Sequence record: MG770228.1
DNA length: 64,000 nucleotides
Source of the DNA: Escherichia phage PMBT57
Direction: 5' to 3' (one strand)
The position numbers and the translations under genes were made by a program. Under the pieces are notes generated by a model, which saw only the letters and a list, made by a program, of their open reading frames with translations, searched no databases and had not been told where the DNA came from. Shown one piece after another: positions 859 to 5,396 of the stretch (its first letter is position 1; each line of letters opens with the position of its first letter).

Positions 859-1467
859 ATGTCTGAAAAACTGTCAGGTGGTTTTAATAACTACTATCTG
901 GTTCAGGTAACCAACCCTCAACGTATGGAACAGCCCCCATATCAAGCCGAGTGTGAGGATATTATCCAAGCACTGAATATGACCTTTGATGAAGGGTGTC
1001 TGTTCAAGGCATTGTGGCGTAATGCTGCTGCTCGTTTAGGTAATGGTAAACCAGGTAACAATGCTGTTTATGATGCAGAGAAGATGGTTCATTATGCTAA
1101 CCGTATTTTTATTAAAGAATCCGGTGGGAAGAAAAAAGAAGCAGAAGAACCAGTTTCTGAGGCTCTGAAGAAGGGTGAAGAGATTCATATGTCTCTGTCT
1201 GAATTATTCACCCTGTTAACTGGTGAAGCAGCAGAAGGTGAAGTAATGAGCCTTGCCGGTTGGCATACTCACGTACCAAACCGTTTGGGTGTTATGCCTA
1301 TTGCTGTTGCAATGAGCAAAGCAGAACAAGTTGATGTAGTACGTGCCGATGGAACGACTATTACTCATGTATTTCCTCATGAGATTGACTGGTCTGATAA
1401 GATTGCTCCCTTTGCTCGAATCACTGCATGGCGTTTCAGTAACCCATCTAAGGTCGCTTCTAAATGA
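859..1467 (+). CDS. hypothetical protein (202 aa)
   Basis: Track ORF; starts 2 nt after the upstream stop; no recognisable motif. Confidence 0.6.
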   Translation: MSEKLSGGFNNYYLVQVTNPQRMEQPPYQAECEDIIQALNMTFDEGCLFKALWRNAAARLGNGKPGNNAVYDAEKMVHYANRIFIKESGGKKKEAEEPVSEALKKGEEIHMSLSELFTLLTGEAAEGEVMSLAGWHTHVPNRLGVMPIAVAMSKAEQVDVVRADGTTITHVFPHEIDWSDKIAPFARITAWRFSNPSKVASK

Positions 1468-2438
1468 AAATCACGAACAATCATGACGTGTCCTTGCCAT
1501 TAGCTGTCTGGCTTTTGCATGACGAGTATGATTACGTGAAGGATAAAAAGTATCTTTCTGTGACTACCCTGCTTAAGCCAATTAAGCACATTGTCATGAA
1601 GCATCGTGTAGACCTTTCTGTAGAAAGCATGGACATCATGGATTTGGTGTCCACTTCTATGGGTACAGGCTTACATGATTCTATTGAGAAGGCATGGCAT
1701 AACGGACACCACAATGCATTACGCAAGTTAGGGTATCCTGAGCGTGTCGTTCAGAATGTTGTCATCAACCCTACCCCTGAGCAGATTGCATCAAATCCAA
1801 ACTTAATTCCTGTATGGATAGAACAACGAGCAACTAAAAAGATTGCTGGTTGGACTATTGGGGGCAAGTTCGACATCGTTACTGAAGGTCTTCTTCAGGA
1901 TGTAAAATCCACCTCCACTTACACATGGGTAAAGGGTGGGCGTGATGAAGAACATAGACTTCAGGGGTCAATGTATCGTTGGTTACATGACGACAAGATT
2001 ACCGAAGATGTGATTCGTATTAACTACATCTTCACTGACTGGATGAAAGCGTTAGCTACATCTCAAGAAAACTATCCAAAGCATCGTGTGCTGCATAAAG
2101 ACATTCCATTGATGTCTTATGAAGCGACTGAAGAATGGATTAAAGCCAAGCTGGTTCTCATTGATAAGTACTGGGATGCTCCTGAAAGCGAGATTCCAGA
2201 ATGTACTGATGAAGAGTTATGGCGTTCTGACCCAGTGTTTAAATACTTTGCTGACCCAGAGAAGGCAAAGCAACCTGGTGCTCGTTCTACCAAAAACTTC
2301 CCTACTCTCTTTGAGGCTCGGAAGTTCATGGCAGAGAAGGGCAAAGGCACTATTCTTCATGTTCCTGGTGAACCTAAACGATGCAACTATTGCTCAATTT
2401 TTAACATCTGCGAACAAAGAAAGAGATATTTCCCATGA
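1464..2438 (+). CDS. PD-(D/E)XK-type nuclease with C-terminal Cys cluster (Cas4/RecB-like exonuclease candidate)
   Basis: 324 aa; FDIV...QDVK resembles the D...(D/E)XK nuclease core; C-terminal CNYCSIFNIC (CxxCx5C) plus an upstream Cys is typical of Fe-S Cas4/RecB-family nucleases; overlaps neighbours by 4 nt at both ends. Confidence 0.5.
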   Translation: MKITNNHDVSLPLAVWLLHDEYDYVKDKKYLSVTTLLKPIKHIVMKHRVDLSVESMDIMDLVSTSMGTGLHDSIEKAWHNGHHNALRKLGYPERVVQNVVINPTPEQIASNPNLIPVWIEQRATKKIAGWTIGGKFDIVTEGLLQDVKSTSTYTWVKGGRDEEHRLQGSMYRWLHDDKITEDVIRINYIFTDWMKALATSQENYPKHRVLHKDIPLMSYEATEEWIKAKLVLIDKYWDAPESEIPECTDEELWRSDPVFKYFADPEKAKQPGARSTKNFPTLFEARKFMAEKGKGTILHVPGEPKRCNYCSIFNICEQRKRYFP

Positions 2439-4582: not shown

Positions 4583-4640
4583 TAGAAACTATTCAGTCCT
4601 TTTCTTGGTTGAAGAGGACTGTCAGTTAAAAGAGGAAACT

Positions 4641-5396
4641 ATGTCAGAAGAATTTGAACATGGCGAAATGAATGACCAGCTAATCCTGATTGTAGGATTT
4701 TCTGCTGCTGGTAAATCGGCCTCACTTCGTAACATCCGTAACCAGGAACGTTGGGTATATCTGAATACAGAAGCTGGTAAACGTCTGCCATTTAAGAATA
4801 ACTTCAATGGTGTTCGTATTACTGACCCATACCAAATCCTGGAATACTTTGACCAATGCATTGAACATCGTGATGACGTGGACGGAATCATTGTAGATTC
4901 CCTGACTTTCATGATGGATATGCTGGAAACTCAGTATGTACTCACTGCTGCAAACACTCAGAAGGCTTGGGGTGAATTTGCACAGTTCTTCAAAATTCTC
5001 CTTCAGGAGAAAGTAGTTAAATTTGCCAAGCCAGTTATCTTCACTGCTCACGTCAAAGACGAAGTAGATGAACGTGCAATGGAACTGAAGACTTTCGTTC
5101 CGGTAAAAGGTTCTCTGAAGAACAATGGTATTGAAGCATACTTCTCTACTGTTGTATCAGCAGAACGTATCGACCTTAAAGAGCTTGAAAAGTATTCCAA
5201 TGGAATGTTGGAAATTACTGAGGATGAGCAAGAGTTGGGGTACAAACACGTATTCCAGACTCGACCTACTAAGAAAACAGTAGGTAAACGTATTCGTTCT
5301 CCTATGGGTATGTTCAGTAAGCAAGAGACTTATATGGACAATGATGCCCAAAAACTTCTCGACCATCTGGCAGAGTATTACTCTACCGGTGCTTAA
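4641..5396 (+). CDS. P-loop NTPase (RecA/AAA-like ATPase)
   Basis: Start moved to the ATG preceded by AAGAGGAA (track start 4605 is TTG); Walker A GFSAAGKS and Walker B-like IIVDSL. Confidence 0.55.
   Translation: MSEEFEHGEMNDQLILIVGFSAAGKSASLRNIRNQERWVYLNTEAGKRLPFKNNFNGVRITDPYQILEYFDQCIEHRDDVDGIIVDSLTFMMDMLETQYVLTAANTQKAWGEFAQFFKILLQEKVVKFAKPVIFTAHVKDEVDERAMELKTFVPVKGSLKNNGIEAYFSTVVSAERIDLKELEKYSNGMLEITEDEQELGYKHVFQTRPTKKTVGKRIRSPMGMFSKQETYMDNDAQKLLDHLAEYYSTGA

Follow-up and report, generated by a model that had tools for sequence, protein, structure and literature searches.

The genes that begin with an Fe-S-type nuclease gene at position 1464 of the window (the whole stretch of 64,000 nucleotides analysed here) are the known replication/recombination cluster of coliphage N4, which already carries annotation and which published work accounts for in large part. 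Taken as a whole, the block very probably represents the replication/recombination module that N4-type phages carry among their middle genes, with the products gp42 to gp46 acting as proposed below. N4 and its close relatives are 98.4–99.3% identical to the window at the DNA level, which identifies it as an Enquatrovirus N4 genome; the closest isolates are vB_Eco_SPSP, AL25 and Jura (each 99.3% identical). Only a few substitutions separate the window from coliphage N4, of which it is a sister isolate. Protein identity to N4 across gp41–gp46 is 97–100%, and gp42, gp43 (dns) and gp44 are the same genes as in N4, with 99–100% identical proteins in identical order and with identical overlaps. Annotations in the N4 records (EF056009 / NC_008720) agree with our assignments for the block, the order gp41-gp42-gp43-gp44-gp45-gp46 is kept in all 80 related loci, and gp42, gp43 and gp44 belong to the core set of 17 proteins of the Schitoviridae (PMC7650795). 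Family and fold assignments, conservation of catalytic residues and synteny were established directly. Coordinates of all features are collected in Table 1.

Table 1. Features of the replication/recombination block and the adjoining genes, in window coordinates.
Feature	Position	Strand	Remarks
ORFs as first called	1464-2438 (324 aa); 2435-4582 (715 aa); 4605-5396 (263 aa)	+	
gp42, predicted Cas4/RecB-type PD-(D/E)XK 5'-3' exonuclease	1464..2438	+	99% identical to N4 gp42
gp42 H71 and E75	1674-1688	+	upstream of main motifs
gp42 catalytic motifs D137, D146-V-K148, Q167xxxY171	1872..1976	+	RecB-type; invariant, including in alignment A1
gp42 putative Fe-S ligands C247 (2202-2204) and C307xxC310x5C316 (2382-2411)	2202..2411	+	
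gp43 (N4 dns), predicted fused helicase-primase	2435..4582	+	100% identical to N4 gp43
gp43 aa 34-392, predicted DUF3987 / MCM-like AAA+ ATPase	2534..3610	+	
gp43 Walker A S71-S78	2645-2668	+	
gp43 Walker B D171-E172	2945-2950	+	
gp43 Arg pair R250-R251	3182-3187	+	
gp43 aa ~395-460, probable winged helix	3617..3814	+	by analogy with DUF3987 proteins (Kazlauskas 2016)
gp43 aa ~465-640, AEP catalytic domain	3827..4354	+	
gp43 AEP motifs I (D525-x-D527), II (H552), III (D592)	4007-4015; 4088-4090; 4208-4210	+	
gp43 aa 652-705, PriCT-1	4388..4549	+	
Conserved intergenic hairpin, 11-bp stem, loop TTGGTT	4594..4621	+	core TTTnYTTGGyT family-wide
gp44, predicted Sak4-like core-only RecA / AAA_24 ssDNA-annealing ATPase	4641..5396	+	100% identical to N4 gp44
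gp44 Walker A GFSAAGKS	4695-4718	+	
gp45, N4SSB	5442..6239	+	100% identical to N4 gp45; PHROG 743, E 4.8e-77; ssb in EF056009
gp46, RuvC-like Holliday-junction resolvase	6239..6796	+	PHROG 159, E 5e-40

By its sequence and predicted structure, gp42 is a Cas4/RecB-type PD-(D/E)XK nuclease. The preliminary description had called it Cas4-like from a DVK core and a CxxCx5C C-terminus; both motifs are present, and the call is borne out by the full set of catalytic motifs and by a full-length match to the PHROG 2139 family “exonuclease” (E 2.9e-147). PHROG 1706 (“CRISPR/Cas system associated”) is matched more weakly, at E 1.7e-9. The Pfam model PDDEXK_1 scores 20.6 bits, just under its cutoff of 22, and is matched by 21 of 50 relatives (E<=0.01). 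The AF2 model (pLDDT 90.5) consists of a single PD-(D/E)XK fold whose best Foldseek match is Cas4 SSO0001 from Sulfolobus (PDB 4ic1; E 3.7e-7, TM 0.63 target-normalised); RecE, EXO5, AdnAB, MGME1, RecB and lambda exonuclease are further matches. Sequence searches of the PDB with gp42, gp43, gp44 and a gp42 profile returned no meaningful match, and the NCBIfam search gave nothing useful. Residues H71, E75, D137, D146, K148, Q167 and Y171 and all four cysteines show no variation across 121 homologs of at least 56% identity. An N4 5'-3' exonuclease (exo gene), for which gp42 is a candidate, was purified in classical work.

The cysteines form a pattern of their own. There are four in all, and C247 is the sole one outside CxxCx5C. 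The preliminary description would have given up the nuclease if no nuclease family matched and the cysteines varied among relatives; the exonuclease family does match, and, beyond the 121 homologs, the four cysteines are kept in 79 of 80 IMG/VR loci (identity down to 50%), the exception being a truncated ORF. Spacing of the triad is CxxCx5C in 77 of these 80 loci and CxxxCx5C in two. The fourth invariant cysteine, C247, comes after the nuclease core, ~60 aa ahead of the triad, and the secondary structure places a ~60-aa beta-alpha-beta subdomain between them. No conserved cysteine occurs in the first 200 aa, where 18 of the 80 loci have sporadic cysteines at varying positions. This conservation suggests that gp42 probably carries an Fe-S cluster.

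The genes for gp41, gp42 and gp43 are joined by 4-nt ATGA overlaps, at 1464-1467 and 2435-2438, the second being the overlap already noticed between the nuclease and primase-like genes. It is plausible from this arrangement that translation of the three genes is kept coupled. At the gp42/gp43 junction, 31 of 80 loci have the exact 4-nt overlap and 51 have some overlap; in the other 29 the overlap is replaced by gaps of 8–508 nt, and coupling is therefore not obligatory.

The 715-aa protein gp43, which had been described as primase-like, does contain an AEP primase domain and a PriCT-1 domain. It matches PHROG 2135, “DNA primase”, over its full length (1204 bits); the fold assigned to the primase domain is that of an AEP, and Pfam PriCT_1 is matched with 38.3 bits (cutoff 21.1) and found in 46 of 63 relatives. 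The AEP residues are conserved to different degrees among these relatives (D525 in 60/63, D527 in 59/63, H552 in 50/63, D592 in 59/63). The large N-terminal region, in which the preliminary description saw no recognisable motifs, holds both Walker motifs, A and B, and a pair of arginines within a predicted DUF3987/MCM-like helicase ATPase, which makes gp43 a predicted helicase-primase. Its match to Pfam DUF3987 (PF13148) reaches 23.7 bits, under the gathering cutoff of 27, and only 9 of 63 diverse relatives match this model at E<=0.001. Profile comparison with hhalign (alignment A3) relates gp43 to the YfjI/DUF3987 family with a probability of 87.7% (E 3.4e-6, 328 columns), with both Walker motifs and the Arg motif colinear between gp43 and YfjI; HHsearch in Kazlauskas 2016 likewise linked gp43 to DUF3987. 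K75, E172, R250 and R251 are present in 63 of 63 relatives, and conservation of the motifs extends over relatives of 27–66% identity.

Among the 150 matches listed by HMMER for gp43 aa 1-460 there were only relatives of the same architecture and no bona fide DUF3987 protein, and the only PDB match of the gp43 family profile was Mcm7 (non-significant, E 0.17). The AF2 model, made from a shallow input alignment (72–85% identity), is poor for aa 1-460, and Foldseek with this model, low-confidence in its N-terminal part, found no significant match. DUF3987 proteins bear a C-terminal wHTH (Kazlauskas 2016); the boundaries of the corresponding winged helix in gp43 are approximate because the model has low confidence. 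The assignment is also favoured by probable inteins in relatives, located at both Walker motifs (A and B) and at LELYDxG.

A Walker-type ATPase, an SSB-like protein and a RuvC-like resolvase had been reported to follow, and these are the Sak4-type P-loop protein gp44, N4SSB (gp45) and the resolvase gp46. gp44 matches Pfam AAA_24 (45.7 bits, cutoff 27) and PHROG 124, “Sak4-like” (E 4.2e-45), and at 251 aa is under the length of <290 aa used to define Sak4 (Lopes 2010). The reading frame first given for it, starting from TTG 4605, is 12 codons too long. This TTG lies inside the loop of a conserved hairpin (see below), and 10 of 19 distinct relatives have stop codons in frame within the extension, whereas ATG 4641 is preceded at 5 nt by the Shine-Dalgarno sequence AAGAGGA and is the start used in the N4 records; it is most likely the true start. 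The gp45 gene lies directly downstream of gp44 in all 80 related loci. Phage ssb genes of the HK620/N4 gp45 type adjoin sak4, the SSB of HK620 is distantly homologous to N4 gp45, and HK620 Sak4 annealing is stimulated by SSB (Hutinet 2018). N4SSB itself is reported to be needed in replication, recombination and late transcription (Choi 1995).

The intergenic stretch that separates the helicase-primase gene from the sak4-ssb-ruvC genes holds a conserved hairpin (RNA dG -19.9 kcal/mol, z -2.5), whose core sequence is kept in 38 distinct junctions. We assessed covariation by an anchored comparison of each stem's own arms with crossed arms: own arms pair at 6.7/8 against 5.7/8 for cross pairs, a difference reached by 0 of 2000 permutations. 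RNAalifold predicted no structure from the raw MAFFT intergenic alignment because the 3' arms are misaligned there, and a search of Rfam with positions 4594-4621 matched no family. Two simple identities were rejected. The loop motif is not a repeated promoter motif: elsewhere in the window it is matched five times, never in a hairpin, on mixed strands and most likely inside coding sequence. Nor is the hairpin a classic intrinsic terminator, as it has no following T-run and was unreported by the terminator scan. It could be a hairpin-type middle promoter or attenuator bounding replication and recombination sub-operons, or it could act as an operator in the translation of gp44/N4SSB; less likely, it serves the adjacent AEP-PriCT-1 helicase-primase as a site of single-strand initiation or loading. 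We put forward tentatively, as a view with rather less than an even chance of being right, that the hairpin is a protein-recognised and undescribed cis element of the Schitoviridae and, jointly, that gp42 is a variant Fe-S nuclease with all four ligands C-terminal to its core.

The N4 genome is linear, with direct terminal repeats of ~400 bp. From the assignments above we infer enzyme activities, polarity, substrates and coupling, and propose the following sequence of events. Most likely, gp43 would form a ring, unwind the fork and supply primers to gp39, the family-A DNA polymerase of the phage, while gp42 would, also most likely, resect DNA ends 5'->3'. The resulting 3' tails would be coated by N4SSB, and gp44 would anneal the coated tails to give concatemers and recombination-primed forks, with gp46 resolving branches ahead of packaging. 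End processing by gp42 for recombination-dependent replication, which the preliminary description had put forward, would fit the published Sak4-SSB modules (PMC2896510, PMC5928155).

Alternatively, gp42 may work mainly at the fork, removing primers or flaps in Okazaki maturation, and not mainly in recombination end resection. Such a role would compensate for the N4 DNA polymerase, which has polymerase A and 3'-5' exonuclease domains and no 5'-3' exonuclease domain (PMC2784036). It is also favoured by the position of gp42, between the polymerase and primase genes and overlapping the latter, and by MGME1 and EXO5, which process flaps or single-stranded 5' ends, among its structural neighbours. 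In structure, however, gp42 comes closest to nucleases of end resection and recombination (Cas4, RecE, AdnAB/RecB and lambda exonuclease), and the gene always accompanies the Sak4-SSB-RuvC set. Moreover, primers would already be removed by the 5'-3' exonuclease of host Pol I, on which N4 replication depends. On balance we regard a principal role at the fork as possible but rather unlikely, and prefer end resection.

A different reading of gp43 would make its ATPase an initiator or loader that binds the origin, opens the duplex locally and places the primase there, leaving bulk unwinding to gp37. This second N4 helicase is encoded upstream, so that fork unwinding does not have to fall to gp43; the probable winged helix between ATPase and primase would suit such a protein, and in ColE2 Rep, PriCT-1 and HTH can unwind DNA without an NTPase (PMC5862659). 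Against this, DUF3987 proteins replace DnaB, MCM or RepA in primase fusions, one of them, AgaPH, is a proven processive 5'-3' helicase (PMC11724360), and the Walker A, Walker B and Arg residues of gp43 are strictly conserved. We consider the initiator role unlikely, and retain gp43 as a ring-forming helicase-primase.

Both the best structural match of gp42, a CRISPR-associated Cas4, and its weak match to PHROG 1706 could be taken to mean that it is a CRISPR-type Cas4, or a decoy that disturbs host CRISPR adaptation, with no role in phage DNA metabolism. We find this very improbable: in a scan of 50 relatives the family matched PDDEXK_1 only and none of the Cas4-specific Pfam models, and the context is free of cas genes and is a phage replication module in 80 of 80 loci. 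gp42 belongs, further, to the core genes found throughout a family of virulent phages, where its synteny with the genes for polymerase, primase, Sak4 and SSB is fixed, and the E. coli type I-E system is not known to include a Cas4. The label UvrD/Rep helicase, given to gp42 in the AlfredRasser record (MZ501049), is almost certainly wrong, as Pfam, PHROG and NCBIfam searches find neither a P-loop nor a helicase domain, the confident model shows one PD-(D/E)XK fold only, and the label probably stems from AddB/UvrD-type proteins carrying PDDEXK_1.

As a description of N4 biology the block adds nothing new, the helicase-then-primase order of gp43 having been published in 2016. The gains are in annotation: gp43 becomes a helicase-primase, gp42 an Fe-S-type exonuclease in place of a “UvrD/Rep helicase”, and gp44 a Sak4-like protein with its start at 4641. 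The hairpin and C247 observations, if true, would give testable handles on the regulation of the switch between the replication and recombination halves of the N4-type middle operon, and also on the extent to which the Fe-S “staple” of Cas4/AddB-type nucleases can be rearranged.

With Cas4 SSO0001 and the Fe-S RecB-like nucleases (nuclease domains of AddB, EXO5 and Dna2), gp42 has in common the D...D-x-K and QxxxY core and the C-terminal CxxCx5C; it is ~120 aa larger and lacks the CRISPR context. In Cas4, AddB and EXO5 the first cluster cysteine lies N-terminal to the nuclease core (the “iron staple”), unlike in gp42, which has no conserved N-terminal cysteine. For gp43, the Walker A/B and Arg motifs are colinear with those of AgaPH (PriCT-DUF3987) and E. 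coli CP4-57 YfjI, which are likewise associated with an AEP primase and PriCT; in AgaPH, however, PriCT comes first and the primase is a separate protein, whereas gp43 has the helicase N-terminal and AEP plus PriCT-1 C-terminal in one chain. The fusions pRN1 ORF904, NrS-1 and PrimPol-PV1 resemble gp43 in combining AEP motifs I–III, followed by PriCT-1, with a ring ATPase, but its order, helicase before primase, is the reverse of theirs; this inverted architecture of N4 dns has been called “non-typical”, and the gene is essential for replication (Kazlauskas et al. 2016). Finally, the HK620 pair of Sak4 and SSB, a core-only RecA ATPase of <290 aa beside an atypical SSB (DUF669 / N4 gp45 related), is arranged as gp44 and gp45 are. 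N4 differs in being virulent, in encoding its own exonuclease and resolvase in the module, in contrast to the HK620-type hijacking of RecBCD through Abc2, and in that N4SSB additionally activates late transcription.

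Along their whole length, the first 8 kb of the window are 98.4% identical to Escherichia phage N4, and they are 99.3% identical to the sister isolates vB_Eco_SPSP, AL25 and Jura. The three ORFs of 1464-5396, found at the coordinates that the preliminary description had given, are gp42, gp43 and gp44 of the N4 records, which place DNA polymerase gp39, gp40 and gp41 upstream and N4SSB (gp45), gp46 and gp47 downstream. The gp41-gp46 proteins are 97-100% identical to those of N4, and RefSeq already carries the labels exonuclease, DNA primase, Sak4-like ssDNA annealing protein and single-strand DNA-binding protein. 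The order gp41>42>43>44>45>46 holds in 80/80 related loci, wherever the contig allows, and gp42, gp43 and gp44 are among 17 proteins conserved across all Schitoviridae (Wittmann et al., 2020, PMC7650795). This is an already known replication/recombination block; the gene observations made earlier are confirmed, and their functional reading is supported. Two items alone might merit more work: a conserved hairpin, and gp42 with its variant placement of cysteines.

Features of the block and of the compared loci.
Feature	Sequence	Position	Description
gp41	window	859-1467	
gp41/gp42 overlap	window	1464-1467	ATGA
gp42	window	1464-2438	nuclease
gp42/gp43 overlap	window	2435-2438	ATGA
gp43 (N4 dns)	window	2435-4582	715 aa
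Hairpin	window	4594-4621	11-bp stem, between gp43 stop and gp44 Shine-Dalgarno; dG -19.9 kcal/mol, z -2.5
gp44	window	4641-5396	ATPase
gp45 (N4SSB)	window	5442-6239	
gp46	window	6239-6796	RuvC-like resolvase
tRNA genes	window	7573-8251	downstream of gp47; Asn-GTT, Ser-TGA, Thr-TGT, Pro-TGG
DNA polymerase CDS	L003 (AlfredRasser, MZ501049)	1-521	annotated as join of two pieces
gp42 homolog	L003 (AlfredRasser, MZ501049)	1464-2438	annotated 'UvrD / Rep family helicase'
Homing-endonuclease gene	L010	6930-7463	HNH_3 + AP2; between gp42 and gp43 homologs
gp44 (Sak4-like) gene	L010	9665-11214	split in two by ~730 nt
Junction hairpin	L085 (LUZ7, NC_013691)	15348-15395	GGCCGC-TTCCA-GCGGCT

Sigma-70-like promoter matches are strongly depleted in window 1-8000 (2 found vs. 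16 +/- 4.2 expected), which fits middle-gene transcription by phage RNAPII, not host polymerase. PHROG matches of gp41 are confined to its N-terminal ~95 aa; one of them falls on the C-terminal end of a family whose annotation reads 3'-phosphatase/5'-polynucleotide kinase, and the 'polynucleotide kinase' label of some records looks like over-annotation via a shared small domain. Of the four tRNA genes, the AlfredRasser annotation lists only Asn, Ser and Thr in the stretch shown. The two-piece polymerase CDS of the same isolate suggests an intervening sequence in its gene.

The N-terminal region of gp43, earlier thought to lack recognisable motifs, is a helicase domain (DUF3987) with Walker A, Walker B and Arg motifs. 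Pfam DUF3987 falls just below its cutoff at aa 39-376 (23.7 bits vs. 27). From 63 diverse relatives, 27-66% identical, we built a profile and compared it with one of the E. coli YfjI family, bona fide members of PF13148; the two align over 328 columns (probability 87.7%, E 3.4e-6), with Walker A (K75/K76), Walker B (D171-E172/D182-E183) and the Arg motif (R251/R255) in register, and K75, E172, R250 and R251 are each found in 63/63 sequences. The primase-like assignment stands: Pfam PriCT_1 is above cutoff at aa 652-705, and the AEP motif residues are kept in most relatives (D525 in 60, D527 in 59, H552 in 50 and D592 in 59 of 63). A HMMER search of the whole library with aa 1-460 returned 517 relatives, and among the matches listed nearly all gp43 relatives have 700-750 aa and the same layout. 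In the AF2 model only aa ~460-715 are well predicted, and a Foldseek search with it gave no significant match. N4 dns is essential for replication and has been described as a DUF3987 (SF6, MCM-related) helicase with an AEP primase fused C-terminally in a "non-typical" order, and DUF3987 proteins are stated to have a winged helix at the C-terminus (Kazlauskas et al., 2016, PMC4889955). AgaPH, also a DUF3987 protein, shows ATP/dATP-dependent helicase activity of 5'-3' polarity and binding to its AEP partner (PMC11724360).

Three gp43 homologs (P0242, P0316 and P0278) carry ~300-aa insertions with intein-like junctions, located right after Walker B (IDE/CFTP...INGN/CGSNLL), at Walker A and within the LELYDxG motif; the one match to Pfam Intein_splicing, in P0242, is below threshold. 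Inteins tend to occupy functionally critical ATPase sites, and the insertions accordingly fit gp43 homologs as working ATPases.

The 4-nt overlap reported between gp42 and gp43 was recovered, and an ATGA overlap also joins gp41 to gp42. Among the 80 loci, gp42 and gp43 overlap in 51, by exactly 4 nt in 31. Judging from sequence, the ATGA overlaps probably link the translation of these genes. Such coupling is favoured without being strictly required, because the remaining junctions have gaps of 8-508 nt, some with an inserted HNH endonuclease gene. In L010, a locus whose gp42 is 70% identical, and in L009, L011 and L012, the gene between the gp42 and gp43 homologs is a homing-endonuclease gene, and the ATGA overlap is retained there, involving the inserted gene.

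That gp44 is a Walker-type ATPase is borne out by its Walker A motif (GFSAAGKS) and Pfam AAA_24 (45.7 bits vs. a cutoff of 27), and it matches Sak4-like PHROG 124 (E 4.2e-45). By definition, Sak4 is a RecA/Rad51 protein reduced to the core and shorter than 290 aa (Lopes et al., 2010). In place of the start first assigned, TTG 4605, the start is most likely ATG 4641, the annotated N4 start, with a Shine-Dalgarno (AAGAGGA) 5 nt upstream; among 19 distinct relatives, 10 have in-frame stops within the 12 extra codons, and TTG 4605 falls within the loop of the conserved hairpin. The SSB-like protein and resolvase described downstream correspond to N4SSB, directly after gp44, and gp46, which matches PHROG 159 (E 5e-40). 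According to the title of Choi et al. (1995), replication, recombination and late transcription all need N4SSB. HK620 SSB is its distant homolog and stimulates annealing by Sak4, and such phage ssb genes adjoin a sak4 gene (Hutinet et al., 2018). Within the L010 gp44 gene, the insert has an ORF and two hits to Rfam group I introns that stay under threshold (33 and 30 bits, cutoff 50; E 7e-6 and 6e-5); an intron carrying a homing endonuclease is the probable explanation.

Across 38 distinct gp43/gp44 junctions of Schitoviridae relatives, the core TTTnYTTGGyT of the hairpin is nearly universal and lies in or beside the loop of a stem, 9-19 bp long in 20 of them. The arms vary (32 distinct 8-nt 5' arms) and the stems covary: own arms pair at 6.7/8 vs. 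5.7/8 for cross pairs, the own-pair mean being reached in 0/2000 permutations, and pairing is perfect in 16/37 own pairs vs. 3.5% of cross pairs. G-T pairs exceed A-C pairs (26 vs. 12), which favours a function of the + strand, as mRNA or + strand ssDNA. No Rfam family matched the hairpin, a terminator scan did not report it, no T-run follows it, and none of the other TTTnYTTGGyT matches within the window is in a hairpin.

The same junction in Pseudomonas phage LUZ7 has a different short GC-rich hairpin. Transcripts of LUZ7 orf64-orf69 (sak4 onward) share one TSS by ONT-cappable-seq, its middle promoters take the form of GC-rich hairpins that precede the TSS by ~15 bp, and a regulated terminator lies upstream of the ssb gene (Putzeys et al., 2022, PMC9163698). 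Together these data offer a lead, that the N4-type hairpin is a candidate promoter or attenuator; other candidate roles are those of an operator in translation, a site of RNA processing and a primase-helicase recognition site.

The D146-V-K148 core and C-terminal CxxCx5C (C307xxC310x5C316) attributed to gp42 are both present, as are Q167xxxY171 and a single further cysteine, C247. The protein matches PHROG 2139 ("exonuclease") end to end (E 2.9e-147); Pfam PDDEXK_1 scores just below cutoff (20.6 bits vs. 22) and is matched by 21/50 relatives. An AF2 model from an alignment of 50 relatives is confident (pLDDT 90.5, pTM 0.80), and among solved structures it is matched best by Sulfolobus SSO0001 (4ic1; E 3.7e-7, TM 0.63 normalised to target), the [4Fe-4S] Cas4 5'-3' exonuclease, followed by RecE, human EXO5, AdnAB, MGME1, RecB and lambda exonuclease. 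The helicase label in the AlfredRasser record is wrong and appears to be a mis-annotation, since no helicase domain was found in gp42.

As a working module, gp43 would unwind the fork and prime for the gp39 polymerase. The genome is linear and terminally redundant, with ~400-bp direct repeats in N4 (PMC7650795). Its ends would be resected by gp42; N4SSB would then coat the 3' tails, gp44 would anneal them into concatemers and recombination-primed forks, and gp46 would resolve branches. For gp42, action as a primer/flap nuclease is a tentative and rather doubtful alternative to end resection. It seems unlikely that the gp43 ATPase is an initiator and gp37 the fork helicase.

The end-resecting nuclease proposed here retains the cysteines on whose conservation, along with a nuclease-family match, the preliminary description had made its Fe-S nuclease reading depend: all four are invariant in 121 homologs, as are H71, E75, D137, D146, K148, Q167 and Y171, down to 56% identity. 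Of 80 IMG/VR loci reaching down to 50% identity, 79 keep them and the other has a truncated ORF; the spacing is CxxxCx5C in 2/80. No Cas4-specific Pfam model matched gp42 or any of 50 relatives, and a true CRISPR Cas4 role is unlikely. In the AF2 model, C247 and the C-terminal triad bracket a ~60-aa beta-alpha-beta subdomain, and C247 is a putative fourth cluster ligand. Cas4, AddB, Dna2 and EXO5 have their first cluster ligand N-terminal to the nuclease core, where the gp42 proteins of the 80 IMG/VR loci have no conserved cysteine; in gp42, by contrast, the fourth invariant cysteine, C247, comes after the core.
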